Shown here in pieces: positions 1,182-28,918 of a stretch of DNA of 29,596 nt. The stretch is taken from UHGV virus genome UHGV-0100673. One strand, given 5' to 3'. The notes under the pieces were generated by a model. It ran no database searches. It saw nothing but the letters and a program-made list of their open reading frames with translations, and was not told the DNA's origin. The position numbers and the translations under genes were made by a program. The stretch's first letter is position 1; every line of letters begins with the position of its first letter. The stretch is from a virus.

Positions 1182-1214
1182 AAAAAACCCTCTGTAGTAA
1201 CAGAGGGTTTTGTT
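1182..1214. terminator. Bidirectional rho-independent terminator
   Basis: Perfect 7-bp stem CCCTCTG / CAGAGGG with 6-nt loop, flanked by an A-run on the 5' side and TTTTGTT on the 3' side, so it can terminate yfgI (+) and the convergent minus-strand transcripts. Confidence 0.7.
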
Positions 1215-1237
1215 CATTCATAGTGCAGGGATCAAAA

Positions 1238-1258
1238 TCATTCCCACTCAATTATTTA
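1238..1258 (-). other. guaA 3'-terminal remnant / candidate prophage attachment-site junction
   Basis: Minus strand reads ATA ATT GAG TGG GAA TGA (I-I-E-W-E-stop) with an in-frame stop just upstream, so only the terminal codons of a gene ending IEWE are present. GuaA ending in IEWE and lying convergent to yfgI are recalled, not verified. Confidence 0.4.
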
Positions 1259-1362
1259 CAGCACTCGTAACCAATTGACTGAAAACAAGTTTATGAAACG
1301 ATAAATTCTGCATACCGTTTTATATACCGTCACCGGGAAACAGTACCATGAAAAATACCATG

Positions 1363-1794
1363 CTACCTGGTCAGTTCATCGTACTGCCTTTCGCATACCC
1401 TTCCGGCTTCAGCTGCCCGGTCAGCGTATTCTGCCAGTTGTCGGTTTCGTTCGAGAGATTTTTCGAACACGTCGGTAAGCAAAATTCCGGTGTCTGCGGC
1501 TGACGACCCAGCGCCGACAGTGGCGTTATACTGCCTGAGCTGCTCACGGATGGCAACGAGCTGCTGCTGCAGCCGGCCAGCGCGAGCGGCAGCATCAAGA
1601 GCATCATTGCGCGCCTGGTCGATCCTCTGCTGCGCCTCTCGTTCATTGGTTGCTTTCTCCTGTTCGTCATGTTGACGGGCTTTATCATCTTCTGCTTTGC
1701 GGTCTGCCTTCGCCTGCGCATACCCGGCGTCGTACTGCCTGTCACCGTGAATATTCCAGGCTACAACGCCGCCGGCTACCAGAGCAGCAAGCAT
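1363..1794 (-). CDS. Rz-like i-spanin
   Basis: N-terminal hydrophobic segment LAALVAGGVVAW then charged Ala/Gln/Arg-rich coiled-coil body; last gene of the lysis cassette; contains an embedded lipoprotein ORF in another frame. Confidence 0.75.
   Translation of the reverse strand: MLAALVAGGVVAWNIHGDRQYDAGYAQAKADRKAEDDKARQHDEQEKATNEREAQQRIDQARNDALDAAARAGRLQQQLVAIREQLRQYNATVGAGSSAADTGILLTDVFEKSLERNRQLAEYADRAAEAGRVCERQYDELTR
1371..1607 (-). CDS. Rz1-like o-spanin (embedded in Rz, alternate frame)
   Basis: Internal start MMLLMLPLALAGCSSSS gives a lipoprotein signal with lipobox LAGC, followed by a Pro/Ser-rich short mature part; entirely within the Rz ORF in a different frame. Start at 1607 or 1604. 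Confidence 0.7.
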   Translation of the reverse strand: MMLLMLPLALAGCSSSSLPSVSSSGSITPLSALGRQPQTPEFCLPTCSKNLSNETDNWQNTLTGQLKPEGYAKGSTMN

Positions 1795-1841
1795 CTACAC
1801 GATAAGCAACTGTTTCCAGTATGCTTTCACGAATGCCGTGA

Positions 1842-2471
1842 TCATGATGCCAGCACCTTCTTGGCCGACAGGTAACGCACACGGCGATCGTCGATGCCAT
1901 TCTGGCCGCCATTGATGATCTGCGTGACGCGCATCAGGTCGTCGGTGTACTTCAGGCATCCATATTTCACGAAGTACCACGCCGCGCTCCGCGCTGCATA
2001 CTCGTCCTGCGCCAGCAGTTCCGGCTGCTTAACCAGGTCCACCTTCATACCGTTGCCGCAGTCACGATAGTTGTTCAGCCCGGTGATCTGGATAAGCCCT
2101 CGTCCGCGGTAAAACCAGCCGTCGGTCGGCCCGTTATTCCCCATGCGTTTGCTGTACACCAGATTGGCAATGGCCCGCTGCCTCTCCAGTGGCAACGATG
2201 GTTCACCCTGCCGGCGCCCGAGGGAATTAGCCTGGCCCTGCGTCAGTCGCCCGGCACGGACGAAACCAGCCAGCCCCGCCACGCTGTAATTGAAGCTCTC
2301 AACGAGCTGGGTAAAGCCAGTGCTTTCATGCCCGGCCTGGGCAATAAACATCGCCTGATCCAGCGGCTTGATGATGCCAAACTCTTTCATGGCCGCCACG
2401 ATGTGCGGATGCCAGCGTGTGGCCAGCGCCAGGCTAACGCCGGCAGCTTTCTGAAACTCGTTAATGTCCAT
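1842..2471 (-). CDS. Endolysin, glycoside hydrolase family 19 (chitinase-like lysozyme)
   Basis: Motifs AQAGHESTGF and YRGRGLIQITGLNNY resemble the GH19 catalytic region; directly downstream of the holin-like genes with an overlapping start. Confidence 0.8.
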   Translation of the reverse strand: MDINEFQKAAGVSLALATRWHPHIVAAMKEFGIIKPLDQAMFIAQAGHESTGFTQLVESFNYSVAGLAGFVRAGRLTQGQANSLGRRQGEPSLPLERQRAIANLVYSKRMGNNGPTDGWFYRGRGLIQITGLNNYRDCGNGMKVDLVKQPELLAQDEYAARSAAWYFVKYGCLKYTDDLMRVTQIINGGQNGIDDRRVRYLSAKKVLAS

Positions 2472-2766
2472 GTTGCGACCTCGATATCTTGAAGATTTGC
2501 ACGACGTTGCCGCGCGTCTTCAGCACCGCGGCGAACATCACAGCATTGATAACGACCTCAGAAAGATCTGCGGTCATGGGGAAGTGGTACAGGTATGAGT
2601 ACGCGGTGCGCAGCGGGATGCTGGCCGCCGCCACGATGAGGAAATAGGCTATCCACCCGCCCCAGCGGCGGTGGCGCGATCCGTTGCGCTGGAAGAACAT
2701 CACCCTCAGCGCTATCCCGCCGCAGATGAGGGCATTAGCGATCAGCAGCAGATCATGGCCTGTCAT
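2461..2766 (-). CDS. Holin/antiholin-like small membrane protein
   Basis: 101 aa with at least two hydrophobic helices; overlaps the upstream membrane protein and the downstream endolysin, i.e. a coupled lysis cassette. Confidence 0.55.
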   Translation of the reverse strand: MTGHDLLLIANALICGGIALRVMFFQRNGSRHRRWGGWIAYFLIVAAASIPLRTAYSYLYHFPMTADLSEVVINAVMFAAVLKTRGNVVQIFKISRSQHGH

Positions 2767-3157
2767 CGTCTTTTCCTCCCGGGATTAAATCGCGCGGATT
2801 GTCAGAGCGGTGATACAGCCATATCCCGACCCGCACCGCGACAATTGCCGCAACGAACGCGCCGGCGGAGTAGACAATGCCCCGCTCGAACGAGTCCTGT
2901 GTGATGGTGGGGATCATGCTGGCAACGCCGATAAGGATTGATGCTGTGGGTTTGTAGAAGAGAAGACCGCAGAGAAAGCTGAGTAGCGCCAGGAGAACGC
3001 GGCGCTTGGCCGGATACTCAACAGCAGAGGTAACAAAAATTACCGCCCCGGCCAGCGATCCCAGCGCCACTTCAGGAGGTACGCCGGCGATAACTGCCGC
3101 CAGCGCACCGTAGCTAAGCCCATGATTTATTGTATCAGCGGTTAGCGATGCAGACAT
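2753..3157 (-). CDS. Holin (multi-pass membrane protein)
   Basis: Three or four predicted TM segments and a charged C-terminal tail (DNPRDLIPGGKDDDRP); first gene of the lysis cassette. Start placed at ATG 3157 (GGTGG 5 nt upstream) rather than GTG 3166. Confidence 0.6.
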   Translation of the reverse strand: MSASLTADTINHGLSYGALAAVIAGVPPEVALGSLAGAVIFVTSAVEYPAKRRVLLALLSFLCGLLFYKPTASILIGVASMIPTITQDSFERGIVYSAGAFVAAIVAVRVGIWLYHRSDNPRDLIPGGKDDDRP

Positions 3158-3276
3158 GATGACCACCGTTTACTATGCATGATGAACCTCCTTAGTTTGG
3201 TAAGTTCATCATACACAACAAACCATATTTGAATAAACGGTAACAGTAATTTATGCCAGTATAAACCTTGCCACAA

Positions 3277-3510
3277 TTATTCAAATAACACTTTTGCGGC
3301 AGTGGCTTTTTCTATTGCCTCATTCAGAATTGTTTGGTTTTCTGTTAACTCGCTGGCACTAAAGTATCTGATGAGAAGCTGATAATTGAGAACGCTGTCG
3401 CCAATAAAATCCATTGCCTGCGCTGTCAGATTCGTATCCATCCCCAGCAAATTCATTAAGGACAATACAATCTGTTCTTTTTCTGTCAGTTGATTCATTT
3501 CGCCTGGCAT
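3277..3510 (-). CDS. Hypothetical small acidic protein
   Basis: 77-aa ORF 18 nt downstream of the tailspike gene on the same strand; no recognisable motif. Confidence 0.4.
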   Translation of the reverse strand: MPGEMNQLTEKEQIVLSLMNLLGMDTNLTAQAMDFIGDSVLNYQLLIRYFSASELTENQTILNEAIEKATAAKVLFE

Positions 3511-3528
3511 GATTGATTTCCTGTTGTA

Positions 3529-5418
3529 TTAGTTAGTTGAAGAGTGGCCGCATAGTTTGGCATTTAGTCCGACATTACATTCGGACAAAGCCACGCCGCT
3601 GATGTTGATGATTCGAACGTACGCCTGCGTTTTCGCGCTGTTGATATAAACCTGAACAGCCACAACAGGCATTGACCCTGCGTATCCTACTGGCGTCACG
3701 TCCAGTGTGTAGTTCGTCCAGTCAGCAATAGAAATGCCAAACAGTGTCGTCACATCTTTTTCAGAATACCCGCCGGCACTTATTGGCCCCCACGCGACAG
3801 CTGAGGATGTGGTATGGAATTTCACACCACCGTCGAGGTTTACCCTGTTTTTTGCTTTTCCGTTGCCCGTACCCAAATACAGCCGCCTGGAATATGTGTC
3901 ACCAAAGTCATCAACACCCCACGGCGTTACAGATGCTGAAACCTGATGAATATATGTCCAGCTACCGTTCTGCGTAGTTTTTCTGCGTACTATAGGGGCA
4001 TTCCCTGAAGCAAAAATAGAATAGGTTGTAGCATCTGTAATGCTAAGCCCCGTTACTGAATCAAAAATTCTGACACCACAATTCCACTTATCGACTCCGT
4101 TACGTAGACGCTGAACGCGAATGCCATCAGCCCCAGATGATGTGGATAGATCTCCAACCCCAGCGATGTAACAGCCAACATAAGTACCGTTACCCACGAT
4201 GCCATCAATATTACAATCAATCTCAACCCCGTAAACCTCGTCTCCGGGTTGCAGATTATGGGCGTTAGTTAACAGGTTCATTGCCCACAATTTCTGCCGT
4301 TCACAGTTAAACGATTCTATCGCAGCCATCAGAGCGACGAACGGCTCATAATTCGGCCCGCTGGACAGCGTGTCATGGACAGCCATTTCAACAGCCATAG
4401 TCTGGTGCTTTACCGACGTTCCATCGATATTCACAGCGCTATATTGTTTTGTTCTGAACGTAGTGCCTGATATTTTGTGGTTCGGGTGCGTTGTTAGTCT
4501 CGGCAGAAAATTGGTATTCGTGACTGTAATTCCCGGGGAAAAAATAACAGTACACGGCTCCGAACGATCAAATTCTATCGCACTGGTTAGAGTGACATTG
4601 GTATCAAAAGTGATGTTACTGGACTCATCAAAAGCAGCCTGCACAGCATCCTGATCGGACAGCCCCTGATTTTTGTAATAACTGATCGCAACAAGAGGTT
4701 TATTACCCAACTTTGCGACCAGGGAAGTCCCTTCTTCTGATGCCAACTCAATCATCACATCAGCCGCAGAACCTGACTCAGGCAATACCGCTATCGGATT
4801 ACCGGTATCGTTGAATGCCAGTATTTTTTTCCTGCGACCTGAGATGCCAGGAAGCATTCCTACTTCTGACTCAGGAACCCTCAGCGTCCGCTTAAAGTTA
4901 TTGTCTGAATGAGAAATGGCGCCATGATAGAGATTGTCAGCATACCCCTTCGTGGCCGCATCCTGCGCCTGTGACGGGTCACGCAAGTTACGAATGCGGT
5001 TGTTGAGTGCGTCGTAATAGTTAGCGATGAACGACGGCTTGCGCAGCGCCAGGCGGAGAAAGCTGAAACACTGCTGGATAAGCATGGTCAACTTGTCGAA
5101 CGCATCCTCATGCACCTCTGCGAAAAATTTACCCTGGTTACGGAGGTCAGTATCCTGGGTAACTGGCAGGTCACGCGAGATAGAGATTTGCCATCCGTTG
5201 GCCAGCGGTGACATCAGCACTACATTCCCACCAGAATAAGTACCAGCCCCAGTAACTGAGTAATCGGTATCCAGAGTCAGCACCGTAATATTTTCGTTAA
5301 GGTCAGCGACCTGGACGGTGAGATCTGACTTCTTGAAGATGCGGAATGTATACGGAAATGATGTCGTAACGCCGTTACCTGTGTATTCGTTGTGGTCAAC
5401 TTCGGTTGAGACCGTCAT
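3529..5418 (-). CDS. Tailspike / tail fibre protein
   Basis: 629 aa; N-terminal pattern EYTGNGVTTSFPYTF...VLTLDTDY resembles the conserved particle-binding domain of T7 gp17-type fibres and podovirus tailspikes; remainder is Gly/Thr/Asn/Ser-rich, consistent with a beta-helix receptor-binding body. Confidence 0.75.
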   Translation of the reverse strand: MTVSTEVDHNEYTGNGVTTSFPYTFRIFKKSDLTVQVADLNENITVLTLDTDYSVTGAGTYSGGNVVLMSPLANGWQISISRDLPVTQDTDLRNQGKFFAEVHEDAFDKLTMLIQQCFSFLRLALRKPSFIANYYDALNNRIRNLRDPSQAQDAATKGYADNLYHGAISHSDNNFKRTLRVPESEVGMLPGISGRRKKILAFNDTGNPIAVLPESGSAADVMIELASEEGTSLVAKLGNKPLVAISYYKNQGLSDQDAVQAAFDESSNITFDTNVTLTSAIEFDRSEPCTVIFSPGITVTNTNFLPRLTTHPNHKISGTTFRTKQYSAVNIDGTSVKHQTMAVEMAVHDTLSSGPNYEPFVALMAAIESFNCERQKLWAMNLLTNAHNLQPGDEVYGVEIDCNIDGIVGNGTYVGCYIAGVGDLSTSSGADGIRVQRLRNGVDKWNCGVRIFDSVTGLSITDATTYSIFASGNAPIVRRKTTQNGSWTYIHQVSASVTPWGVDDFGDTYSRRLYLGTGNGKAKNRVNLDGGVKFHTTSSAVAWGPISAGGYSEKDVTTLFGISIADWTNYTLDVTPVGYAGSMPVVAVQVYINSAKTQAYVRIINISGVALSECNVGLNAKLCGHSSTN

Positions 5419-5521
5419 GTTAAATCTCCAGATAGTCGCAGCACCCGTTGCGCCGCATATCCGGTTATTTTATTACCTGAAAAACCACATATGGATAGAT
5501 AGACTGTGAATACGAACAGAT

Positions 5522-5538
5522 ATTACCTTTCAGGTAAT
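5522..5538. promoter_or_regulatory. Palindromic operator-like site ATTACC-TTTCA-GGTAAT
   Basis: Perfect 6-bp inverted arms with 5-bp spacer, read directly; same core as four other sites in the window. Confidence 0.5.
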
Positions 5539-5574
5539 TTGCAAAACGTGCTGGATAGCAAACAAATTATTTGA

Positions 5575-5594
5575 TACTGTATAAATATACAGTT
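5575..5594. promoter_or_regulatory. LexA (SOS) box
   Basis: TACTGTATAAATATACAGTT contains CTGT-N8-ACAG with an AT-rich spacer, a very close match to the LexA consensus, about 20 nt upstream of the ATG at 5614. Confidence 0.75.
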
Positions 5595-5613
5595 ATTGCA
5601 TGGAGAAGATAAG

Positions 5614-5871
5614 ATGCAGCAGTATCACTATCCACTGGAAGACGGATTTACCGAAAGGATTCACACGCCGGGAGGCGTCAGGTCACTGGTGGAGGGATCG
5701 CACTTGATGAAATTACTCCGGGATCTCGATAAGGATGGATTTAATGTCGATGGCCCACTTGCCGAACTGACTGCACTGATTAACTACGTCACCAGCTCAC
5801 AGATGTCTATGCAGGATCTGCAAACACATCTCGACTATTGTGCCGAACAATTACGAAAACAAACCAGATAA
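5614..5871 (+). CDS. Small SOS-controlled antirepressor-like protein (homologous to the C-terminal domain of the adjacent BRO-N protein)
   Basis: ATG 5614 with SD GGAG 6 nt upstream (the ORF track's 5596 start is TTG). GVRSLVEGSHLMKLLRDLDKDGFNVDGPLAELTALINYV...DLQTHLDY aligns by eye with SGVLGLTENSLLMNLLNQLQEDGHDVSGAAAELTTMFCYI...DIQTHAEY at the C-terminus of the 6187..6882 product. Confidence 0.65.
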   Translation: MQQYHYPLEDGFTERIHTPGGVRSLVEGSHLMKLLRDLDKDGFNVDGPLAELTALINYVTSSQMSMQDLQTHLDYCAEQLRKQTR

Positions 5872-5902
5872 GGTTTGCAATTACCAAATGGAGTGCTTAT
5901 AT

Positions 5903-5919
5903 TTACCTTTGCGGTAAAT
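5903..5919. promoter_or_regulatory. Palindromic operator-like site variant TTTACC-TTTGC-GGTAAA
   Basis: Same TTACC-N5-GGTAA core as the other four sites. Confidence 0.4.
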
Positions 5920-6009
5920 TTACATCGCACTCCTCTTGTGCCATAGTAATCGGGCACTGGCAAAATCCAGTGCCGGGATTGGCGTCCCGGATTACTAAAA
6001 GGTGCATTC

Positions 6010-6029
6010 ACCGCGCAAGCGGTTTTTTT
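6010..6029 (+). terminator. Short intrinsic terminator-like hairpin
   Basis: ACCGC-GCAA-GCGGT stem-loop followed by a 7-T run; downstream of the small gene and of a structured element at 5945..5996. Confidence 0.4.
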
Positions 6030-6186
6030 ATACGTATAGCACGGCCACATTCGTATTATGGTGGGCTGTGTGGGGGCACCGAAAGGTGCGCCGGGTCCTT
6101 TTAGCCGGTTACGCCAACCCTGCACAGCTCACCACCAACCGATTGGCGTCGGTAGTGGTGATTAACCAGACTAAAAGGTAACCACT

Positions 6187-6882
6187 ATGACAGCTACAAA
6201 AAGCACGTCCATTTTTTCTTTCGAATCCCAAGCCGATATACGAGTAATCGTCATTAATGGTGAGCCATGGTTTATCGCTTCAGATGTTTGTCGGGCTATA
6301 GGCATAGCAAACCATCGAGATGCTGTTCGAAAACTTGATGATGATGAGAAGGGCGTCGCTTCAACCGACACCCCTGGCGGTGAGCAAGAATCGATCATCA
6401 TCTCCGAGTCAGGCCTCTACACACTGATCCTCCGCTGCCGCGACGCAGTGACACCAGGCACTATCCCCTACCGCTTTCGTAAATGGGTTACAGGTGAGGT
6501 TCTTCCTCAGATCCGCTGCACCGGAAGTTACATTAAAAACTCGCTCCCGCAGGAAGAACGCATAAAGATGGTTGCCGACCAGGTAGCCAACGCCACAGCA
6601 TCAGCAGTGATGCAGGCGATGAAGATAGAGAACAAAACCTACAGTGCCCCACTGAAGCCCGGCTACCGCAGCCTGATTCATTCGCCGTCTGGTGTTCTCG
6701 GCCTGACGGAGAACTCACTGCTGATGAATCTGCTGAACCAGTTACAGGAAGACGGGCACGACGTATCGGGCGCGGCGGCGGAGCTGACCACCATGTTCTG
6801 CTACATCGTCGGTGTGAGCAAATGCCTGCGTGATATCCAGACGCACGCGGAGTACATCAACGACAAAGCAGGGTTCTTCTGA
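6187..6882 (+). CDS. BRO-N domain phage antirepressor
   Basis: N-terminal region ...IRVIVINGEPWFIASDVCRAIGI...ESGLYTLILRC...FRKWVTGEVLPQIR matches the BRO-N domain pattern; C-terminal about 60 aa homologous to the small upstream protein. Confidence 0.75.
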   Translation: MTATKSTSIFSFESQADIRVIVINGEPWFIASDVCRAIGIANHRDAVRKLDDDEKGVASTDTPGGEQESIIISESGLYTLILRCRDAVTPGTIPYRFRKWVTGEVLPQIRCTGSYIKNSLPQEERIKMVADQVANATASAVMQAMKIENKTYSAPLKPGYRSLIHSPSGVLGLTENSLLMNLLNQLQEDGHDVSGAAAELTTMFCYIVGVSKCLRDIQTHAEYINDKAGFF

Positions 6883-6953
6883 CGGGCGGCGGCACAGGGA
6901 TGTGCCTTTAAATAATTCTGTACAGATTGCAGACTGGGGGTGAATAGCGTACT

Positions 6954-6970
6954 ATTACCTTAAAGGTAAA
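6954..6970. promoter_or_regulatory. Palindromic operator-like site ATTACC-TTAAA-GGTAAA
   Basis: TTACC-N5-GGTAA core about 45 nt upstream of the ATG at 7012. Confidence 0.45.
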
Positions 6971-7011
6971 CCTGTTTTTATTTTATACCTGTAACTTACC
7001 GGAGATTAAAG

Positions 7012-7338
7012 ATGACAAAACTTGGATTCGTGATGAGAGGTCCGGTAAGAAGCGGAACTCATGCAAAGCGTAGCAAGAGTCGTATTTTTACTGGTAAGGT
7101 TGTAGCACGTAAATCAGCTATTGGCTCGTTCCATAGTGAAAATGCGGCATTGCGCCATATTTTTATCAGCACAAAGCCAAGAGCATCCGCTGATGTGCAT
7201 ACAATGACTATTCCTATCACAAAGAATATAAAGCGGATAAAAAAGCTCTCATCTGCAGAATCAAAAGAGATATCTTTCCGCCAGCTTAACTCATTAGAAA
7301 CGCATATGAAGGAAGAGGAATTCGATGTTTTTGAGTGA
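7012..7338 (+). CDS. Hypothetical basic protein, first gene of a two-gene overlapping module (candidate antitoxin/partner)
   Basis: SD GGAG 7 nt upstream of ATG; 108 aa, Lys/Arg-rich with acidic C-terminal tail EEEFDVFE; 3' end overlaps the next gene by 14 nt. Confidence 0.5.
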   Translation: MTKLGFVMRGPVRSGTHAKRSKSRIFTGKVVARKSAIGSFHSENAALRHIFISTKPRASADVHTMTIPITKNIKRIKKLSSAESKEISFRQLNSLETHMKEEEFDVFE

Positions 7339-7837
7339 GTATAGCGGGAAGGTTATACCTACTGGTGAGTTTAAAACTGATGACTTTCTGATTTCGCTAA
7401 AAGATGCTTTTAAACAACACTGGCGTCATGGTCATCATCCTGATCTGGGAAAAGATACTCTTTTTGAAAGACCAGACGAAGTATTAGGTTTCCATCTCAG
7501 AAAGGTTCATGTCAATATTGGTGAATATGCATCATATTCATACTCATGTACTGAACAGTGTTGGGATGAGTGGTCATATGGATTGATTGATGAACAAGGA
7601 AATTACAGGCCAAAACCAACCAGTAACGCATATCTCATATATGCAGTCAATGAAATAAGAGATGCAGCCTTACTAGCTTATTGGGACCCGCCCGCACACA
7701 CCAAAGCTAACGCAAAAGTTTGGATGGATTCCGTATTGAATTTCACAAAATTATTTCATGAACGAACGAATACAGCTCCACTTAGTAGAAATGTTTATCC
7801 GTGGGATTATTCGTACAAATCCAAAAAGCCTGCATAG
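7325..7837 (+). CDS. Candidate YafO-family toxin-like protein (tentative)
   Basis: Start ATG 7325 lies inside the upstream gene with SD AGGAAGAGGA ahead of it. Blocks LGKDTLFE...HLRKVHV and AYLIYAVNEIRDAALLAYWDPPAH resemble, from memory, the conserved FGRDALYD...VAHIHL and HLVYCQG...AWLLIAILKPEPH blocks of E. coli YafO. No search was run. Confidence 0.45.
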   Translation: MFLSEYSGKVIPTGEFKTDDFLISLKDAFKQHWRHGHHPDLGKDTLFERPDEVLGFHLRKVHVNIGEYASYSYSCTEQCWDEWSYGLIDEQGNYRPKPTSNAYLIYAVNEIRDAALLAYWDPPAHTKANAKVWMDSVLNFTKLFHERTNTAPLSRNVYPWDYSYKSKKPA

Positions 7838-7918
7838 TAGTTTTTTATGGACGAAACAAAAGTCAGTGCTACACTCATTGACGCCACATTGAAGTGGCTT
7901 ATAGATGGAAATTTCACA

Positions 7919-8603: not shown

Positions 8604-11078
8604 TTATTGCGGAGTGACATCCTGAGGTCGCCACCAGTATGTCTGGTTAAACTCTTTCTTCGAACGTTGCTCCATTTTACGCAAATAGCCTGGTGAAAAA
8701 TACTCCTGCATCTGGTTAAAGATCATGTGATCGAGAGCCGCCTTCAAGTACCAGAGATTCGCACCAGGCATCAAACCTTTCCCCAGCTTCACCAGATCAC
8801 CACCAGTCTGCTCACTCTTCCCTTCCACAGCATTTAACGGTATGCCCTGAGCAATCTTCACTACGTCATCAACCAGACCAGCTACCGGGCCAAGCATCGA
8901 CGCCAGCGCGCCGCTTCCGTACCTAGTGTGATCTGACAATAAAAAGTCACCATAAAGGCCAAGACCACCACCTTTCAGTAGAGCACCAAGCCAGAATTTT
9001 GCGGCATCTTCTCCTGTCATCTCTCGAGGATTACGACCAGACGCAAGGTCGTTAAGTTGTTGCGACAAAGCGCCAAGAATGGTCGTACTGGCAATAAACG
9101 TCGCAATATATGCCGCACGCCCACCAGCAGACGGCATACCCATAGCGCGTGACCAGTGACGCATAACAACCGAGATAGGGAACGATTTAAACAGGAAAAC
9201 ACTTCTCGTTAATTCACCTTTCCATGTTCCACGCTGAATACCAGAACCGGTTATCAGTTGCTCACGTGCTCCCGGTGTAATAACAGCCATATCAACTTCT
9301 TCAGTTACGGCACCGAGCAGTTTACGCATTGCCTCAAATTTCACGCGTTCAGGCTCACCAAGATGTTTAACTGCTGAATCAGGGATACGCATAATGCTTT
9401 CCGGTGTCAGCATCGTATTATTACCGTTACCCCAGTCCTCCTGTTGCGCCAGCTTCCATACGCTCCAGTCTGTGTCAGTAATCCCTTTGCTTTTCAGGAT
9501 ACGAAAATCAGAGTCATCGAGGCTACGAAGGTCTGGTGTTCGTGACACTACTTCTCCCAGGCTTCCCATCATGGTTACGCCATAGGCGCGCTTGTGCGCA
9601 TCTGACCATGCTGTAAGCCCACTGGCACGCATTACCGCCGTTGCCGCCCAACGAGACACTGACGGCCCCATATTATCCATCGCCCAGCGGTTAACGCTGC
9701 CAAGTAGAGATTCCATCGCCAGACCAGCGCGGCGCGCCCGCGCAAGTTCTGTACGGTTCGTTGGGTCCATAGCTTCAAGCTGGTTGCGGAATAACTGGTT
9801 CATTGGAAGGTTGGTAACCTTCGCAGACAGATACATGGTTCCAAGATCAGAGAACGATGACAGCAACGCGGATCCGAGTCTGCTGGCAACCAGCCAGTTG
9901 CGGATATTGTCAGACCATCGCGCGATGTGCGGATTCGCTACAGGCTGTGTCTTTCCGGAAATAAAGTTGTACAGATTCTCTGTGTTGTTCGCCAGCCGCT
10001 CGACTTTACCGGTTTTACTCGGGTTAGCGGTTGCCGTTTCTGCCTTCACCTGATCAAGAAGAGAGCGGAAAACATGATCGGGGTTTGGGCCATATGTTTC
10101 CACCAGTGCAATATCTTTACTGATACCTTCCAGGTGACCGACCATGATTTCCCATAGAGAGCGATCGCCATAAAGTTGCTGATATTGCAGATAGGAATCT
10201 GCATCTTTGAAATGTATCTGTCGTGATGCATTACCACGGTTAGCACGTGCGCCGGAAATTCGCATTCCGGTATCAGTAAGCTTATTCAGCCCACCAGTAG
10301 CGATCGTGTTATAAGCCTCTCCAAGAAATGCAGACAACTCGGCATCGTTCATCAGTTGTCCATCGGCTCGGATATAATATTTGCGATCCAGCTTACCTAT
10401 AACATCGCTAACCCACTTATCCTTTGATACCGCCCCAACCTTTTCCATAGAATGATGTTGAGGGATCCCCCAGTTTTCGAGATAGCCAATGTCCCCACCA
10501 GCATCATTAAACCGGCGGCGCAGCAGCTCTGTAACTTCTCTCCACGCCTTAGCACCTTTTCTTGCTTTAGCATTGCCAGTATTTTGCCCCCGCATTTCAT
10601 ATACCAGGTCACGTACGCCCGCTTCATCTTCAAACAGACCAAAAAAGCGAGGATCAACTGCTTCGAATGCCTCCTGCAATTGACTCAATGCATAATCACG
10701 GGTGGCTTTTGTTCTGGATTCAACAGAGAGGAAATTAGATTTACCGTCTGCATTAAAAGCTATAGTACGGTTAAGAGCGCCAAGTTTCCCATCAGCCCCT
10801 TGATAGCTATTGATAAATTTATCCAATCTCTGACGCGCGGCTATAGTGAGAGCCACACGACGTTTCTTTAATGCCGCTTCTCGCTGTAATTCTTCAGATG
10901 CCAATTGTGCTGCTCGATATAGCCGCTCTGATTCGGAAAGTTGTCGCCACGACATCGGGTCATCACGAGCAATGGAGCGCATATTTCGATAAATGCGGTC
11001 TTCAATGTTCTGTATTTCTCGCGCCGTTAACGTGCGCTGCGCCGCCTGCTGGACCGCTTGTATACATTCCTGTCTCAT
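8604..11078 (-). CDS. Internal virion / ejection protein (gp16-like position)
   Basis: 824-aa ORF in the run of large proteins between the tail tube genes and the end of the structural operon; call is positional. Confidence 0.55.
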   Translation of the reverse strand: MRQECIQAVQQAAQRTLTAREIQNIEDRIYRNMRSIARDDPMSWRQLSESERLYRAAQLASEELQREAALKKRRVALTIAARQRLDKFINSYQGADGKLGALNRTIAFNADGKSNFLSVESRTKATRDYALSQLQEAFEAVDPRFFGLFEDEAGVRDLVYEMRGQNTGNAKARKGAKAWREVTELLRRRFNDAGGDIGYLENWGIPQHHSMEKVGAVSKDKWVSDVIGKLDRKYYIRADGQLMNDAELSAFLGEAYNTIATGGLNKLTDTGMRISGARANRGNASRQIHFKDADSYLQYQQLYGDRSLWEIMVGHLEGISKDIALVETYGPNPDHVFRSLLDQVKAETATANPSKTGKVERLANNTENLYNFISGKTQPVANPHIARWSDNIRNWLVASRLGSALLSSFSDLGTMYLSAKVTNLPMNQLFRNQLEAMDPTNRTELARARRAGLAMESLLGSVNRWAMDNMGPSVSRWAATAVMRASGLTAWSDAHKRAYGVTMMGSLGEVVSRTPDLRSLDDSDFRILKSKGITDTDWSVWKLAQQEDWGNGNNTMLTPESIMRIPDSAVKHLGEPERVKFEAMRKLLGAVTEEVDMAVITPGAREQLITGSGIQRGTWKGELTRSVFLFKSFPISVVMRHWSRAMGMPSAGGRAAYIATFIASTTILGALSQQLNDLASGRNPREMTGEDAAKFWLGALLKGGGLGLYGDFLLSDHTRYGSGALASMLGPVAGLVDDVVKIAQGIPLNAVEGKSEQTGGDLVKLGKGLMPGANLWYLKAALDHMIFNQMQEYFSPGYLRKMEQRSKKEFNQTYWWRPQDVTPQ

Positions 11079-12886: not shown

Positions 12887-15396
12887 TGCGGAATATCTCC
12901 GGAGAATCTCTGACGCTTCTGTGTCAGATCAAGAACAACGGGAGAACCATCATCTTTTAGCAGATAACCAGTACCAAGTTTCACCAGGTACTGACTATCG
13001 CCGTAACTTTGCAAACCATACTGACCAGGCGGTGTTTTTATCCCTGTGCCAACAACTTGTTCATTCCAAGCCTGATTAACCTGCTTATCGAATTGCTCTG
13101 CAGACATTCCCCACGGCAAAAGAACATTCCCCATTCCGTTATAGTCATGCACGCCACCTGTAGCTACGTTAACAGCCTGTTTCCAGATATCATTGTCAAT
13201 TTCGCCTGATACCACGCCTTTTTTCGCCATCACACCAGCGTAATAGTCCTTTGCGATCTCGTATGCCATTGATGCCCCCTGAGCATCACCAGCAAATGCA
13301 TCCTTCACCATGTCAGAAAACTCAAGGCGAAGATCAGCATCTTTAGGCATCGGAATACCTTTCGCGTCATCAGTACCTTTACGAGCCGCCGCGCCAGCAA
13401 GAATTGTCTGCGCAGCGGTTTCTGGAGACACGGAAACATCAGGATTAAACCAGTTTTTTTCTGCCAAAATACCACCTGGCTTATCCATCAGTATCCCGGC
13501 AACGGCAGCAGATGGAGCGTTGGCACTGATCTGCTGTAGTGCTGACATATACACCTGCCCACCACCAGTGCTCTGCCTGATGGTATCGAGATATGCTGCC
13601 TGTTGGGAAACGGGCGCATCACGAAAGAAAACACCGATCTGATTGGCCTCGTCTTTGGAAAAGAACGTCAGTGGAGTGCCATATGACTTAGCAAGGTCAC
13701 TGACCTGAGCAGCACGCAAGGCAACGCTCTGTCCAAAGTTATCCTTATTGCTCATGTCGATAGGCTTTGCCTGTCCGGCGGCAAGAGAGAACTGTACAGG
13801 ATCAGCCTGTCGCTGCTTTATCACCTGACTTGCAGCCGACACAACGTTGTCATAAAGAGCGGCTCGTGCCGCATAACCCTCCCCTGTCTCACCAGTATCC
13901 GGGCGTAATTGCTCAACATATGCTGTAATGCTGCTTGTCGGCATGTTGCGGAAAGAGCCTATATACTGTCCGGCGATTTGCGTATTTCTGAACTCGGTAT
14001 ATCGCAGGTTTCCTTCTCTTACTCCATAAGCTGCAATAAAATCAGCCTCACCAGGTGGGTTAGGAAATTCAACGCCACGCATATACGCAGCTGTCGCATC
14101 GCGAACCTGGCTGTCAATCATCGTTTTATATTCAGCCTGCTGCTGCCGACGCAGTTGATCCGCCTGTCGCATAAAACTTGCCTGCGCCTCAGGAGATGCC
14201 GCATCGAATGCTGCATTACCGGTATAGCGTTTGGTGTTGGTTGGAATTGTTGATAAACCAAGTGCTGCACTGACACCAGCAGTTAACTGCTGATCACTGT
14301 ATGGCTGGCTACCGTTCTCATGATGGATAATGGCTGCACAAAGCGCCTTCAGGGTATCAGGATTAGATGCATCGAGAGGCTCATCAGCAGAAACGCCAAG
14401 TTGTTCGCACACTGCTTTGATATACGACATAGTGTCATTTTTATCAGCAGGCGGTGCCCAGCGATTAATTATCTCGCTGACGGTATCAATACCCTGCCTC
14501 TGATACGACATCAGGTTCCGCCCTAATGCACGAATCCCGTGTTCAGGTGTTTCGAATTTAGCAAATCGACCATCATCACCGGTCTGGCCTACCCACGGAT
14601 TAGTTTTGCTGTATTCGAGATTTCCTGGGTTATTGTTGCGTATGCCACGGGCACGCTCGGAAGAGTCACTATCTGCTACAGCACGGCGAGCTCCAGCAGC
14701 AGTATCACTTAACTCGCCATTACTTTGGATGAATGCGGTCGCATTGTTTGCCGACCACTGGGACAATGCAGCATCAGCAACCTTCTCTTTAAACTCGATT
14801 TTCTTGGCCTGGATTTGCTCGTTGCTCCAGCCATGTGCAACACCGTACTCCTCAATTTGCTGGAAAGTTTGCTTGTTAGCCAATACGTATGCGGCGTTGT
14901 CGCCATACAATGCTGCGGCATTTTTACCATTGTTCAGCAGTGTCGCCTGAAACTGGCCTTCTTCGTAGGCATTAATTTGCCCTATCTCGTGTCGCCCGGC
15001 CTGCGTAGTGAACTGAATGCGCTGCTGCTGCGCCTGCTGCATGAAAGCATTACGAGCCTGTTCATCCGGCAGCGACATAGCAAGTTGTTCGACCTGAGCA
15101 TCAAACTGCTGCGTATACTCATGGCCTTTTCCAATAGCATTTTTCCCTTTCAGGTTAAGCAATCCTGTTTCAGGATTATTCAGCAGATCGCTGCTTATCT
15201 GACTGAGGTTAAGAGATGCCTCCTGAGCCAGAGCGATATTGGCACGCTGTTTTGCCTGCCCCAAAACATCAATTGCCTCTGTCCCTGCCCGAACAAAAGC
15301 ATCACCAATACCTTGCTGAGAAAACGTCTGCAAGCCTGCTGACTGAACTCCACGACTCTCAACCTGACGTCCGGATACTGTTGGTACGACTGGCAT
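12883..15396 (-). CDS. Internal virion protein (gp15-like position)
   Basis: Start placed at internal ATG 15396, which overlaps the upstream stop by 1 nt and has SD GGAGG; the ORF-track start at 15471 would overlap the upstream gene by 75 nt. Contains a segment RNNNPGNLEY...IINRWAPP of unknown function. Confidence 0.55.
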   Translation of the reverse strand: MPVVPTVSGRQVESRGVQSAGLQTFSQQGIGDAFVRAGTEAIDVLGQAKQRANIALAQEASLNLSQISSDLLNNPETGLLNLKGKNAIGKGHEYTQQFDAQVEQLAMSLPDEQARNAFMQQAQQQRIQFTTQAGRHEIGQINAYEEGQFQATLLNNGKNAAALYGDNAAYVLANKQTFQQIEEYGVAHGWSNEQIQAKKIEFKEKVADAALSQWSANNATAFIQSNGELSDTAAGARRAVADSDSSERARGIRNNNPGNLEYSKTNPWVGQTGDDGRFAKFETPEHGIRALGRNLMSYQRQGIDTVSEIINRWAPPADKNDTMSYIKAVCEQLGVSADEPLDASNPDTLKALCAAIIHHENGSQPYSDQQLTAGVSAALGLSTIPTNTKRYTGNAAFDAASPEAQASFMRQADQLRRQQQAEYKTMIDSQVRDATAAYMRGVEFPNPPGEADFIAAYGVREGNLRYTEFRNTQIAGQYIGSFRNMPTSSITAYVEQLRPDTGETGEGYAARAALYDNVVSAASQVIKQRQADPVQFSLAAGQAKPIDMSNKDNFGQSVALRAAQVSDLAKSYGTPLTFFSKDEANQIGVFFRDAPVSQQAAYLDTIRQSTGGGQVYMSALQQISANAPSAAVAGILMDKPGGILAEKNWFNPDVSVSPETAAQTILAGAAARKGTDDAKGIPMPKDADLRLEFSDMVKDAFAGDAQGASMAYEIAKDYYAGVMAKKGVVSGEIDNDIWKQAVNVATGGVHDYNGMGNVLLPWGMSAEQFDKQVNQAWNEQVVGTGIKTPPGQYGLQSYGDSQYLVKLGTGYLLKDDGSPVVLDLTQKRQRFSGDIPQ

Positions 15397-25334: not shown

Positions 25335-26225
25335 ATGCTTGACTTCATCCGTGACATTTACTCCTCTTTCCGCCAAGCATCTCTTGAGCGGGTGAAAAGC
25401 CCGTTCCTTGGGGCATTTGTTTTTTCCTGGCTTTGCTTTAATTGGCAGATGTTAGCAATTCTATTTTTTAGTTCTAAGGATATTGAAAAGCGCCTTGCTA
25501 TTATTAATGGCTCTTTCGGCATCGTCAGCTTTTTAATTGCGCCAATATGCACTACAGCATTGATAGTTATCCTTTTACCGCAAATTAATAAATTGATTAC
25601 AATAATACAAGATAAACCTAACTCAGACACAATTGAAATGAGCCTTGCATCTAAAATAAAGATCGCCGAACTGCAGCAACTATTAGCAGAAAATGAAGCA
25701 AGAAAGAAACTTGCTGATAAAAAAGAAGAACGCTTCATTGAAGAGAATATTATTTCAATAAAAAAAGACCATGAAAAAGCAATAGATAACCTTAAAGACA
25801 AAGAAAGCAAAATCTCAAATCTCACGGACACAATAACTGAACTTCAGAGCAAACTGGTTAAAGCTGAGGCCACTCTCAAAGTTGAACAGGAGTCAAGATC
25901 CCAAGTGCAGAATGAATTGATTATTGAAAAAGAGAACAAGCGGAAATTAGAAGACAACATTCTGCACCTTAATTTAAGTTTAAAAAAAAACCAATCAGAA
26001 TTGGCCATTGCAAAAGAAGCCTATGATAATACCTTGATGGCTTATAATGAACTTAACACAACATTAAAAAAAGCAGAAAGCTCAATAATAAACTTCAATG
26101 CTAACTTTCCTTTTTTAACTGACATAAATAACAGCACCCCAAATACATACTTAAAAATAAATAAAAATGCATGGGATCATTTAGTTAGTTTAAATTTAAG
26201 TCTAAAGGAGAAAATACAAAAATAA
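25335..26225 (+). CDS. Membrane-anchored coiled-coil protein, AT-rich accessory (moron) gene of unknown function
   Basis: 296 aa; two N-terminal hydrophobic helices (FLGAFVFSWLCFNWQMLAILFF and IVSFLIAPICTTALIVILLP) then about 200 aa of Lys/Glu/Leu/Asn-rich heptad-like sequence; codons dominated by A/T with frequent ATA and some AGA; opposite strand to the flanking terminase and portal genes. Confidence 0.65.
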   Translation: MLDFIRDIYSSFRQASLERVKSPFLGAFVFSWLCFNWQMLAILFFSSKDIEKRLAIINGSFGIVSFLIAPICTTALIVILLPQINKLITIIQDKPNSDTIEMSLASKIKIAELQQLLAENEARKKLADKKEERFIEENIISIKKDHEKAIDNLKDKESKISNLTDTITELQSKLVKAEATLKVEQESRSQVQNELIIEKENKRKLEDNILHLNLSLKKNQSELAIAKEAYDNTLMAYNELNTTLKKAESSIINFNANFPFLTDINNSTPNTYLKINKNAWDHLVSLNLSLKEKIQK

Positions 26226-26248
26226 ATAACCAATCCACTATGGCATAT

Positions 26249-27718
26249 TTACTCATACGGGTCATAATCTATTATAGCCCTGCCCTGCTGCTGCCGTGGG
26301 TCATTAGTTTTCTTGGCTACCGGGAACGCAAACGTCAGCAGTAGCGCATCGCCTTTACCAGGTGAACGCCCAAGTCGTTCTTTGATATCTTCCTTCGGTT
26401 CGATAACGATTTTACCGTCCACGCGAACTTTGTACTCTGCCGCAGACAGATCGTCCGCTGTTTCCTGGTCATCCAGCATCCCGCCCAACCTCAGCCATGT
26501 CTTGCATGAGTTGAACATCTCCCCGCGCTTGTTGAGCATCTGAGGGTCAGTAGACGCGCCGCCGAACGGAACAAGTTGCCAAGTACGCCCCCAGCCATCA
26601 CCGATTGACTTCAAACCGGTTCCGTAACCGAAGTCGATGAACACCGCGTCAGCCTGATACTGGTCTTCAAAGTCAGCGATACGCTTCGCCATAATCAGAT
26701 CGTCAGTGGTCTTGTTGCCAGTCCACAGCACCTTACTGTGCAGCCCCTGCCGCAGGTATATCACAGCGTCATCAACGCCGGAGTATGCCGGGTCAACGCC
26801 GATTATCACCGGAGCATGTGCCACCTGCGCAGCGGTTACCACCCGTTTCATTGCCTCGTCAGTAAGACCGGTAGGGATAAACTGCAATTCAGATGCATCA
26901 GGGAATATGCCACGCACACGGATTTTAACGAAGTCGCTGTCTTCCCCGTAGTCATCAACCCATTTCTGCAACTGATGTTTGTTAGTGCCTTCCACCGTCC
27001 GGCTGTCAATCTGCGCAGTTTTCCAGCGATGTTTATATTTGCGGAAACATTCGCGGAAACGTCCGGTGTTACGTGTAGGGTTTCCGAACGCCACCCAGAT
27101 AATCTCAGTGTCTTCGTCCGTAAGCGCACCCTCAGCAACTTCCCACACCAGATCCGCAATGTTCGACGCTTCATCGAATACCACGATGATGCGTTTGCGC
27201 TCGTTGTGTAGTCCGGCGAATGCCTCAGTGTTGTGCTCAGACCAGGGGATTGCGTCAGCTCGCCACCGCTTGTCGTGCCCAGGGTCATTGCTGTACATCG
27301 CGGTAGCGGTACAGGTAAACCAGTCTTTCGTGATAGCAAGGTTCGACCACTTGATAATTTCCGGCCAGGTCTTCGTTCGTAGCTGGTTGTCGGTGTTGGC
27401 GGTCACCACGACCTTACAATCCTCGCAAGTGGACATGCCCCAGTTGATCAACATTGAGATGAATGCTGATTTACCAATACCGTGGCCCGAAGCACGTGCC
27501 AGCATAAGCGGCTGATAGCGCGTCTCGGGATTCTGCAGGTGATCACGTATCTCTCGGAACGCATCGGCCTGCCACTGACGTGGGCCGGTAGCATGTGCCA
27601 GTTCAGTCCCCTCTTCCCCCCACGGGAACGCATAGAGGGCATAGCCAAGCGGATCGTGAGTGAACCCTGCAATATCCTCGATCAACTGCTCTTCAGGAGA
27701 TAACGCTGCATCTGTCAC
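26249..27718 (-). CDS. Terminase large subunit
   Basis: 489 aa; Walker-A-like segment GHGIGKSAF in the N-terminal half, acidic nuclease-type C-terminal half; start overlaps the stop of the upstream small-subunit gene. Confidence 0.85.
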   Translation of the reverse strand: MTDAALSPEEQLIEDIAGFTHDPLGYALYAFPWGEEGTELAHATGPRQWQADAFREIRDHLQNPETRYQPLMLARASGHGIGKSAFISMLINWGMSTCEDCKVVVTANTDNQLRTKTWPEIIKWSNLAITKDWFTCTATAMYSNDPGHDKRWRADAIPWSEHNTEAFAGLHNERKRIIVVFDEASNIADLVWEVAEGALTDEDTEIIWVAFGNPTRNTGRFRECFRKYKHRWKTAQIDSRTVEGTNKHQLQKWVDDYGEDSDFVKIRVRGIFPDASELQFIPTGLTDEAMKRVVTAAQVAHAPVIIGVDPAYSGVDDAVIYLRQGLHSKVLWTGNKTTDDLIMAKRIADFEDQYQADAVFIDFGYGTGLKSIGDGWGRTWQLVPFGGASTDPQMLNKRGEMFNSCKTWLRLGGMLDDQETADDLSAAEYKVRVDGKIVIEPKEDIKERLGRSPGKGDALLLTFAFPVAKKTNDPRQQQGRAIIDYDPYE

Positions 27719-28347: not shown

Positions 28348-28465
28348 AACCACCGTGGTAATAGTTACCGTTGTGGTAATAGTACCATGCAAAATAAAGC
28401 CGCCATAGTTGGCGGCAGTATTCAAAACCCGTCAAATTCATCATGCATAATCTACTCGTGACATG

Positions 28466-28813: not shown

Positions 28814-28918
28814 TCCACGCCAGATTGATTAATGACTCCCAGGCAATATAAACCCGGATACCAGCAGCCAGGCCGAAACCAATCACCATGGCATAAAGCA
28901 GAGCGTTGCACTTGTTCA

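Follow-up and report, generated by a model that had tools for sequence, protein, structure and literature searches.

Where did the body of a prophage tailspike come from, which surface polysaccharide does it recognize, and what is the purpose of the small gene that follows it? These questions are raised by a locus in a 29,596-nucleotide stretch of viral DNA (UHGV virus genome UHGV-0100673, referred to as the window in the following), in which the gene for a tailspike is followed on the same strand by a gene for a small acidic protein and then by the lysis genes. We propose that the spike body and the small gene constitute a two-gene cassette imported from Klebsiella phages, that the probable target of the body is a capsule, and that the small gene serves the spike as an accessory; for this explanation as a whole, we consider the chances slightly better than even. 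The relevant features are the following:

3529..5418, minus strand: tailspike gene, 629 residues, ATG start
4741..5418, minus strand: N-terminal virion-anchor module of the tailspike, residues 1–226
3529..4740, minus strand: receptor-binding body of the tailspike, residues 227–629 plus the stop codon
3511..3528, minus strand: spacer of 18 nt from the stop codon of the spike gene to the start of the small gene, with an AGGAAA ribosome-binding site
3277..3510, minus strand: small DUF2560 gene, 77 residues, ATG start (alternative start at Met5, ATG at 3498)
1363..3166, minus strand: lysis cassette, directly downstream of the small gene, with the following four genes assigned by Pfam and PHROG
2753..3166, minus strand: holin_8
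2461..2766, minus strand: holin with three transmembrane segments (3TM holin)
1842..2471, minus strand: GH19 endolysin
1363..1794, minus strand: Rz/DUF2514 (Rz-like spanin)

Both the spike and the small open reading frame lie on the minus strand at the positions given in a first, sequence-only reading of this DNA, and both are real genes. Dozens of contigs from E. coli, Shigella and Klebsiella encode proteins identical or nearly identical to each of them, and the small gene additionally maintains a constant length of 76–77 residues across its relatives, with a dN/dS of 0.12–0.32; it is under purifying selection. In a pattern scan, no terminator-like site was found among the spike gene, the small gene and the holin gene. 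Given the short gap with its ribosome-binding site and the lack of such a site between them, the spike gene and the small gene probably share a transcript.

The element from which the window derives is an E. coli prophage of the phiV10/epsilon15-like type (Uetakevirus), inserted beside yfgI. Its structural arm (8.6–29.6 kb of the window) is 98% identical to phiV10 and relatives, its gene order agrees with the epsilon15 and phiV10 records, and its spike gene occupies the same slot as in other Uetakevirus genomes, flanked by the antirepressor interval on one side and by the lysis cassette on the other. The gap between the spike and the other virion genes, initially described as a 2.7-kb accessory island, does exist, but measures about 3.2 kb up to the next virion gene (8604..11078) and contains about 2.5 kb of plus-strand genes, which include a Bro-N antirepressor and a YafO-like pair. 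Since an equivalent interval is present in epsilon15 and phiV10, it is a conserved architectural feature and not a peculiarity of the window. On the other side of the spike, the DNA at 1182–3243 is 95.7% identical to the Klebsiella prophage ST512-KPC3phi13.3, as opposed to about 79% to phiV10, and the lysis cassette is part of this Klebsiella-like arm.

The spike itself is modular, and the expected combination of a conserved N-terminal anchor with a divergent body is borne out by homology. Over residues 1–235/240, it is 70–77% identical to the N-termini of epsilon15 gp20, phiV10 gp25 and their relatives; PHROG tail families match residues 1 to approximately 235, and 117 of the first 120 positions are the same as in a recombinantly produced K62 enzyme from a Klebsiella prophage. 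Among PDB sequences, residues 1–127 match the Dpo31/Dpo36 tailspike (E = 9e-25) and residues 135–239 the KN1 depolymerase (E = 6.5e-14). By contrast, the original description of the N-terminus as T7 gp17-like does not hold, as the Pfam family Phage_T7_tail (PF03906) reaches just 20.7 bits, below its cutoff of 25.2, and this within residues 135–161 only. Judged by its homologs, the anchor is really of the epsilon15 gp20/phiV10/Klebsiella-prophage type, and residues 1–226 are the conserved module with which this lineage fastens the spike to the tail. Some relatives of the body with other N-termini, such as P0169, pass the Phage_T7_tail threshold.

The body, on the other hand, is 85–98% identical to Klebsiella proteins, which bear PF18668, PF09008 or lambdoid N-termini. 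It is rare overall and common in Klebsiella pneumoniae prophages, and the DNA homology to such prophages covers exactly positions 3277–4740, i.e. the small gene and the body. The spike is very probably a chimera of a Uetakevirus anchor and an imported body, a confidence that applies to its identity as a spike and to its chimerism jointly. Residues 227–629 are a replaceable receptor-binding body, which entered this lineage from the gene pool of Klebsiella phages along with the gene that follows it. That receptor-binding domains are exchanged in a modular manner is well established, and the spike as such is ordinary; the window nevertheless offers a concrete case of a coliphage chassis (98% phiV10) that gained a Klebsiella spike, small gene and lysis arm.

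Homology searches with the body yielded no match in Pfam, NCBIfam or among PDB sequences, even when a profile of the body family was used. Likewise, hhalign comparisons of this profile gave probabilities of at most 1.3% against eight beta-helix spikes from the fetched loci and no relationship to E. coli WcaM, which holds the analogous position in the colanic-acid locus, and a pattern scan of genome contigs derived from the family alignment matched nothing relevant. A Pfam pectate-lyase match is seen in two distant family members only, where it is confined to the N-terminal cap motif. Structure prediction with AF2 was unusable for the full-length spike with 31 close homologs (pLDDT 43). For the body alone with 34 sequences, including distant ones, the pLDDT reached 60.7; this model is confident only at the N-terminal cap and the C-terminal sandwich, while body residues 94–233 remain unmodelled. 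Its best structural matches were to the Klebsiella depolymerase KP32gp38 (PDB 6tku, 9qrm), and a beta-helix with a C-terminal beta-sandwich is weakly favoured as the fold. The body family has an invariant cluster of glutamate and aspartate residues (E399, D401 and D423 of the spike), and the conserved acidic cluster G-D-E-x-Y-G-x-E-x-D-x-N-x-D is a candidate active site.

The target of the body can be approached through its distribution. Among 5426 complete E. coli genomes, the whole spike is found in one, PK6, which has a Klebsiella-type capsule locus (galF-wzi-wza-wzb-wzc-wbaP...wzy...wzx-gnd-rmlBADC-ugd). The type-specific part of this locus occurs in 19 of the 5426 genomes, including that of strain 2 HS-C, and the capsule loci of the two strains are 99.9% identical. 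We take strain 2 HS-C to represent E. coli HS, whose capsule locus has been typed as Klebsiella K47 and acts as a phage receptor (bioRxiv 10.64898/2026.05.19.726188). Furthermore, the K47-type locus of PK6 encodes WP_032330483.1, a protein with a twin-arginine signal that shares 41% identity with the body of the spike across 358 residues (E = 6e-100). Against a specificity for K47 in particular, IS elements have struck the spike gene as well as the capsule locus in PK6, and a body 66% identical to that of the window is present in K9PH25C2, a phage named for its K9 host. Given the rare K47-type locus in PK6 and the body homolog inside it, the O-antigen specificity that the sequence-only reading had thought probable is less likely than specificity for a capsule. 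On balance, we favour a Klebsiella-type group-1 capsule over an O-antigen as the target of the spike, with K47 as a best guess drawn from one genome. The body would bind, and probably cleave, this type of capsular polysaccharide, and would thereby give a coliphage chassis access to those uncommon E. coli strains that are coated with a Klebsiella capsule.

Two other readings of the body have to be weighed against this, both of which we consider unlikely. In one of them, it recognizes and cleaves an O-antigen, for example the O8/O9-type mannan that is common to E. coli and Klebsiella (O5/O3). This would fit the closest characterized relatives of the backbone, epsilon15 and phiV10, which use O-antigen and have O-antigen conversion genes in the slot downstream of the spike. 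It would also fit the O9-type wbd genes that adjoin the capsule locus in PK6 and are likewise carried by HS-type strains, and the affiliation of K9PH25C2 with the Queuovirinae, a member of which, phiHS1, has been reported to require O9 (bioRxiv 10.64898/2026.05.19.726188). However, the O9-type cluster of PK6 is cut short by IS1, the rare shared feature is the capsule locus, the cellular homolog of the body is encoded within the capsule locus and not in an O-antigen locus, and the slot in which O-antigen conversion genes usually lie contains none in the prophage of the window. The other reading regards the body as a non-enzymatic adhesin or a polysaccharide-modifying enzyme with a new fold, neither a depolymerase nor a beta-helix. 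Neither Pfam nor the PDB nor profile comparisons tie the body to beta-helix enzymes, and AF2 fails in the middle part of the body, both of which speak for such a protein, as do the receptor-binding proteins with uncharacterized folds, including the top predictor for KL47, and the non-depolymerase SGNH esterases that were described as common in Klebsiella prophages (PLoS Biol 2026, PMC13123978). A peptide search did not find the body in the supplements of that study and of DepoCatalog, so that its identity with the KL47 predictor of uncharacterized fold could not be established; PC1728, listed in the same study as a ‘likely’ KL47 predictor, is a different, pectin-lyase-like protein.

We now turn to the small gene. 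In an hmmscan search, its product matches the Pfam family DUF2560 (PF10834) with 22.8 bits, below the cutoff of 25 (E = 1e-4, residues 7–72 of the 72-position model), and it matches PHROG 571 with E = 1.3e-9. A database protein identical to it has been assigned to PF10834.15, and it can be aligned end to end with canonical DUF2560 members, which by full-length homology places it in this family. The protein is acidic (pI 4.2; 11 acidic and 4 basic residues) and soluble, with neither a membrane segment nor a signal peptide. Searches of PADLOC, NCBIfam and the PDB returned no match, DUF2560 was the sole match in Pfam, and the protein resembles none of the known chaperones of fibre assembly, no defence protein and no solved structure. 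The homology search suggested for this protein has thus provided a family, but one for which we found no functional information, and our search of the literature on DUF2560 and K9PH25C2 likewise yielded nothing functional.

The genomic context of the gene is more telling. The suggested linkage of the acidic 77-residue protein to the spike, directly after which it is encoded and before the lysis cassette, is genuine: pairs of body and DUF2560 gene recur across six distinct phage backbones, of which three appear to be virulent. The DUF2560 gene lies 11–18 nt downstream of the body in 12 loci, that is in the window and 11 others, which comprise PK6, another Uetakevirus contig, lambdoid prophage contigs, K9PH25C2 (Queuovirinae), HMGUkp5 (Ackermannviridae) and the siphovirus phi1_146003. 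In several unrelated backbones, the block of homology ends exactly at the stop codon of the small gene. In P2-like prophages and invertible lambdoid segments, the DUF2560 gene is found 0.3–2.7 kb downstream of the body, with cargo genes in between, such as an open reading frame of 82–97 residues or a defence-like protease with a trypsin fold. In Klebsiella lambdoid prophages, the pair resides within a Gin-like invertible segment with an adjoining resolvase/invertase gene; here, a 28-nt hix/gix-like inverted repeat is located exactly at the junction between anchor and body, and the alternative body has a small downstream gene of its own. No DUF2560 gene follows the body in a T7-like phage (body 67% identical), a P22-like prophage (58%) and a Vectrevirus (46%), and none accompanies the exported homolog in the capsule locus. 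The DUF2560 gene is inherited together with the body as a single cassette.

A role in lysis was considered for the small gene and rejected, as K9PH25C2, HMGUkp5 and phi1_146003 have no lysis genes nearby. The linkage within invertible segments and the presence across six backbones also rule out lysogenic conversion and indicate a role as a spike accessory. We put forward this role tentatively, as a reading that falls somewhat short of an even chance and in which the interaction with the spike is inferred. The DUF2560 protein would act in the cytoplasm late in infection as a body-specific accessory, for example in the folding, trimerization or maturation of the spike, and it would be useful to the spike, but not indispensable. 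A strict requirement for folding or trimerization is disfavoured by the T7-like, P22-like and Vectrevirus versions and by the capsule-locus homolog, all of which do without the gene. The notion of a tailspike chaperone, raised at the outset, accordingly survives as the best-fitting reading in view of the downstream position and co-inheritance of the gene, while the missing homology to chaperone families and the lineages without the gene speak against it.

The alternatives fare differently. It is quite conceivable, albeit rather doubtful, that the DUF2560 protein works independently of the spike, for instance in host takeover, in anti-defence or in some further late function, and that its gene hitchhikes at the 3' edge of a module that is often exchanged. 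Canonical DUF2560 genes are indeed located at a distance from spikes, between the lysis and terminase genes; the gene is missing from three spike lineages and does not accompany the homolog in the capsule locus; unrelated cargo can insert between it and the body; and mimics and inhibitors are typically small, acidic and soluble. A mere hitchhiker, however, is harder to reconcile with a homology block that stops precisely at the end of the small gene in several unrelated backbones, with a spacing of 11–18 nt that has been kept in compact genomes from three families considered to be virulent, and with the position of the gene in the Mu-like invertible segment, where it takes the place of the chaperone gene; nor did PADLOC recognize the protein. 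Far less probable, and effectively excluded, is the initial suggestion of a small lysogenic-conversion gene, i.e. a conversion or superinfection-exclusion gene in the slot of gp21/gp22 in epsilon15 and oac in phiV10. The gene does lie in the same interval between spike and lysis genes, but its acidic, soluble product has no membrane segment or signal peptide, it is encoded on the spike strand and apparently co-transcribed with the spike instead of being divergent with its own promoter, and it has been retained in Ackermannviridae, Queuovirinae and other phages without lysogeny genes in the regions examined, including three families regarded as virulent.

The linkage to spikes is a first functional lead for DUF2560, and if the protein aids spike folding, recombinant depolymerases of this kind that come out insoluble might be rescued by its co-expression. 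The body may likewise bear on the question why many prophage depolymerases evade annotation or fail in recombinant expression, and its homolog in the capsule locus offers a testable route to the substrate of a protein without Pfam or PDB matches. A bolder proposal, which we regard as improbable but worth stating, is that the body represents an undescribed family of capsule-degrading enzymes, captured from or shared with the Tat-exported enzyme of the K47 locus, and that the spike-linked DUF2560 proteins (~8.6 kDa) are new dedicated tailspike maturation factors, which move with the body among podo-, sipho- and myoviruses and via invertible segments. In any case, the window agrees with the recent finding that Klebsiella capsules are present on some E. 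coli strains and shield them from ordinary coliphages.

A comparison with known systems places these observations in context. With epsilon15 gp20 and phiV10 gp25, the spike of the window shares a homologous anchor and the position of its gene. The epsilon15 and phiV10 spikes, however, are O-antigen enzymes of 875–1070 residues with a beta-helix, their bodies are unrelated to that of the 629-residue protein, and their downstream slot is occupied by divergent O-antigen conversion genes and not by a DUF2560 gene on the same strand. With Klebsiella depolymerases of the KP32gp38 type, the spike likely has in common a plan of anchor, enzymatic body and C-terminal beta-sandwich; both draw on the same Klebsiella phage gene pool, and N-termini have been swapped in a modular manner in both. 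The phages phiHS2 and phiHS3, too, have Klebsiella-type spikes on other chassis, and their hosts are E. coli with a Klebsiella K47-like capsule. Their K47-specific spikes feature a K1-lyase-like insert and a C-terminal PF26986 domain (bioRxiv 10.64898/2026.05.19.726188), whereas the spike of the window has no PF26986 match, resides on a Uetakevirus chassis and is K47-specific by inference.

For the small protein, the closest comparison is with canonical DUF2560 members from enterobacterial lambdoid and HK97-like prophages. These are 32–44% identical to it, share the invariant residues M5, T9, Q13, I14, L16, D38, L41, L45, A65 and F76, and resemble it in size, acidity and late-operon context, but are encoded between the lysis cassette and HNH/terminase genes, away from spikes; in one such prophage, the spike body was not found in the part of the record examined. 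Finally, the G segment of Mu and the C segment of P1 (S-U/S'-U'), in which the C-terminus of a fibre inverts along with the assembly chaperone cognate to it, provide a parallel to the Klebsiella segment. The window differs from these systems in that it has no invertase, and in its relatives cargo genes can part the body from the DUF2560 gene. The Mu U/Tfa chaperones have no homology to DUF2560 and are twice its size. What Mu, P1 and the Klebsiella segment have in common is an invertible C-terminal part of the fibre or spike that is accompanied by its own downstream gene.

The 629-aa spike and the 77-aa ORF directly 3' of it lie exactly where the sequence-only reading had placed them, and are followed by the lysis cassette:

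3529-5418, minus strand, spike, 629 aa (ORF call)
3277-3510, minus strand, small ORF, 77 aa (ORF call)
3' of the small ORF, minus strand as the spike, lysis cassette: two holins, a GH19 endolysin and an Rz-like spanin

An 18-nt gap separates the spike from the small ORF, whose ATG is preceded by an AGGAAA ribosome-binding site, and a pattern scan from the spike through the small ORF to the first holin detected no terminator-like sites. The host genes yfgI and yfgH, which lie past the lysis cassette, identify the window as the right end of a prophage integrated beside yfgI, as in Escherichia coli PK6. At 8.6-29.6 kb, it shares ~98% identity with phiV10 and its Uetakevirus relatives from E. coli, and it has its gene order in common with epsilon15 and phiV10: virion proteins, antirepressor interval, spike, variable slot and lysis cassette. 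The proposed 'accessory island' therefore does stand between the spike and the remaining virion genes, but is a conserved feature of the genus and not specific to this window. Here, the antirepressor interval holds a Bro-N antirepressor and a YafO-like pair. Two overlapping plus-strand ORFs in this interval (7012-7837; 108 aa and 170 aa), which are missing from the corresponding interval of phiV10, may constitute a toxin-antitoxin pair; in PK6, RefSeq lists the 170-aa protein as a YafO-family type II toxin, with a sub-threshold Pfam YafO match (19.7 bits vs 25). Further along, a low-GC patch (25000-26500; 0.37-0.41 vs ~0.51 elsewhere) contains a 296-aa ORF (25335-26225, plus strand) that runs opposite to the surrounding minus-strand genes, has no Pfam match and is probably a moron.

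The anchor of the spike (residues 1 to ~226) is 60-77% identical to the N-termini of epsilon15 gp20, phiV10 gp25 and relatives from Salmonella, Enterobacter and Klebsiella. Residues 1-127 match the N-terminal region of the solved depolymerase tailspike Dpo31/Dpo36, residues 135-239 that of the solved KN1 depolymerase, and residues 1-120 agree in 117 of 120 positions with the N-terminus of the Klebsiella prophage enzyme 0367_12 (K62-listed, PMC13123978 supplement). To call this N-terminus 'T7 gp17-like' is an overstatement, as the Pfam T7 tail-fibre domain yields just a sub-threshold match over 27 residues. By its anchor and its position, we place the spike in the Uetakevirus tailspike family.

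The body (residues 227-629), by contrast, is unrelated to the spike bodies of epsilon15 and phiV10. Hundreds of prophage proteins from Klebsiella and Raoultella share 85-98% identity with it and carry quite different N-termini (PF18668, the PF09008 head-binding domain or a lambdoid side-fibre type). Identity is 62-66% with the spikes of three phages of Klebsiella, K9PH25C2 (Queuovirinae), HMGUkp5 (Ackermannviridae) and phi1_146003. The earlier view of a modular tailspike with a conserved anchor and a divergent body is thus borne out, and at the sequence level the spike is a chimera of a Uetakevirus-type anchor and a Klebsiella-type body. The DNA block common to the window and Klebsiella prophages (3277 to 4740) comprises exactly the small gene and the body; the lysis cassette (1182-3243) is 95.7% identical to that of the Klebsiella Uetakevirus-like prophage ST512-KPC3phi13.3 and ~79% to that of phiV10. 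As both are Klebsiella-like, the element can be described as a phiV10-type chassis with a Klebsiella-type right arm, and the whole of this arm, beyond the spike body alone, appears to be of Klebsiella-phage origin. Modular spike exchange, Klebsiella and E. coli phages included, has already been described; the two new leads are a capsule-locus homologue of the body and a DUF2560-spike cassette.

No described depolymerase family accommodates the body. When 1.84 billion representative proteins were scanned exhaustively with HMMER, only 18 clusters reached E <= 0.001, and searches of Pfam, NCBIfam and PDB sequences, profile search included, returned no relatives. A full-length structure model failed (pLDDT 43); a body-only model (pLDDT 60.7) is confident only in an N-terminal cap (body residues 14-90) and a C-terminal beta-sandwich (~305-400). 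Its best Foldseek match is the Klebsiella capsule depolymerase KP32gp38 (E 3e-3, ~96 columns), and two distant family members match a pectate-lyase cap motif in Pfam; a profile-profile comparison with eight beta-helix spikes and WcaM revealed no relationship. A beta-helix followed by a C-terminal sandwich is a plausible fold. The family shares an invariant acidic cluster, G-D-E-x-Y-G-x-E-x-D-x-N-x-D plus G-D, which includes E399, D401 and D423 of the spike and is the obvious candidate for the active site.

Among 5426 complete E. coli genomes, the whole spike occurs in PK6 alone, where its gene is broken by IS2 near the 5' end, with ISKox3 adjoining (prophage locus L001, 8198-10897). The capsule locus of PK6 is of the Klebsiella group-1 type (galF-wzi-wza-wzb-wzc-wbaP-...-wzy-...-wzx-gnd-rmlBADC-ugd), and after it comes an O9-type wbd cluster that is truncated. 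While wzi is found in 577 of the 5426 genomes, the type-specific part of this locus is found in only 19, strain 2 HS-C among them. The PK6 locus (L043) carries two IS1 copies (14081-14778, 28129-28826), a frameshifted cpsACP and a split wzx; phage spike and presumed receptor locus are both decaying in this strain. Within the K47-type locus, tblastn across all loci compared detected a homologue of the spike body (41% identity, 358 residues, E 6e-100), encoded between a glycosyltransferase gene and wzx:

5900-7177 of the 2 HS-C capsule locus (L052), intact homologue WP_032330483.1, 425 aa
26366-27666 of the PK6 capsule locus (L043), frameshifted homologue

WP_032330483.1 has a twin-arginine signal (MTITRRKFLGF), no Pfam or NCBIfam assignment and no detected relation to WcaM. 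It is common for a polysaccharide locus to encode an exported enzyme whose substrate is the polysaccharide made by that locus. The homology of the body to a capsule-locus protein, in a host that has this same locus, suggests that the spike targets the capsule, as judged from one genome. The capsule locus of E. coli HS, which we assume 2 HS-C to represent, has been typed as Klebsiella K47, and this capsule is the receptor for phages with Klebsiella-like spikes; about ten E. coli and Shigella strains combine K47 with an O-locus deletion (bioRxiv 10.64898/2026.05.19.726188). Two points count against K47 specificity of the present spike: the different domain described for the published K47 spikes, and a 66%-identical body in a phage whose name refers to a K9 host.

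The homology search proposed for the 77-aa protein, which is acidic as noted (pI 4.2) and has no hydrophobic segment, leads to DUF2560 (PF10834). It scores just under the threshold in the Pfam copy used, but a database protein of the same sequence is placed in the family; it matches PHROG 571, and its alignment with canonical members runs over the full length. The gene belongs to DUF2560, within which it defines a spike-linked subgroup. The databases searched give no function for DUF2560. The gene has a dN/dS of 0.12-0.32, indicative of purifying selection. An MxGEM N-terminus is kept throughout the subgroup; canonical proteins begin at the residue aligned with Met5, and the ATG at 3498 is a possible alternative start (3498-3510).

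Genes for close relatives of this protein (51-100% identical) always follow this spike body. They lie 11-18 nt after it in the window and PK6, on a second Uetakevirus contig and several prophage contigs, and in K9PH25C2, HMGUkp5 and phi1_146003. In P2-like prophages and in the invertible segments of lambdoid prophages, cargo genes are inserted between the two and the distance is 0.3-2.7 kb. In some Klebsiella prophages, an 82-97-aa ORF lies between the two genes (L034 3528-4929; L013 4620-4913; L044 3686-3937), sometimes joined by a 230-aa trypsin-fold protease with RT-Protease_XI and LmuA as best PADLOC matches; this insert looks like defence cargo. The pairing spans six unrelated backbones, three of them in families regarded as virulent, which excludes the lysogenic-conversion role once considered for the small ORF. 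The other suggestion, a chaperone, gains from this linkage to the body, and we tentatively read the protein as a spike accessory. A passenger with a function unrelated to the spike is nearly as likely a reading; it accords with canonical DUF2560 genes (32-44% identical), which are located between lysis and HNH/terminase genes, and the available part of one such prophage record revealed no spike body of this kind. Three lineages lack the gene after the spike: a T7-like phage, whose body is 67% identical, a P22-like prophage (58% identical) and a Vectrevirus (46% identical). Together with the canonical genes by the terminase, they argue against a strict chaperone role.

The pairing recurs in Klebsiella lambdoid prophages, where one half of a ~4.9 kb invertible segment consists of the body and the DUF2560 gene; this segment is seen in both orientations among genomes:

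1870-7840 of prophage locus L034 (also L032-L041; Klebsiella pneumoniae chromosomes), region with the invertible tail-fibre segment, which adjoins a Resolvase+HTH_7 invertase gene

A 28-nt hix/gix-like inverted repeat, TTCGCTCAAACCTGGGTTCAGGCGAAGG, occurs at L034 2279-2306 and 7218-7245, exactly where the constant part of the fibre gene (anchor) meets the variable part (body). In the window, the 5' edge of the body (4735-4745; ...GGCATCAGAAGAAGGGAC) is no more than a few bases away from the right half of this crossover site (L034 2279-2306; ...GGGTTCAGGCGAAGGGAC), so that one and the same linker acts as the swap point in both the window spike and the Klebsiella segment. The other arm of the segment encodes a 509-aa alternative body with its own, unrelated 88-89-aa downstream gene. 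This pairing of each body with a small gene mirrors the arrangement in Mu and P1, where every variable end of the fibre has a chaperone of its own.
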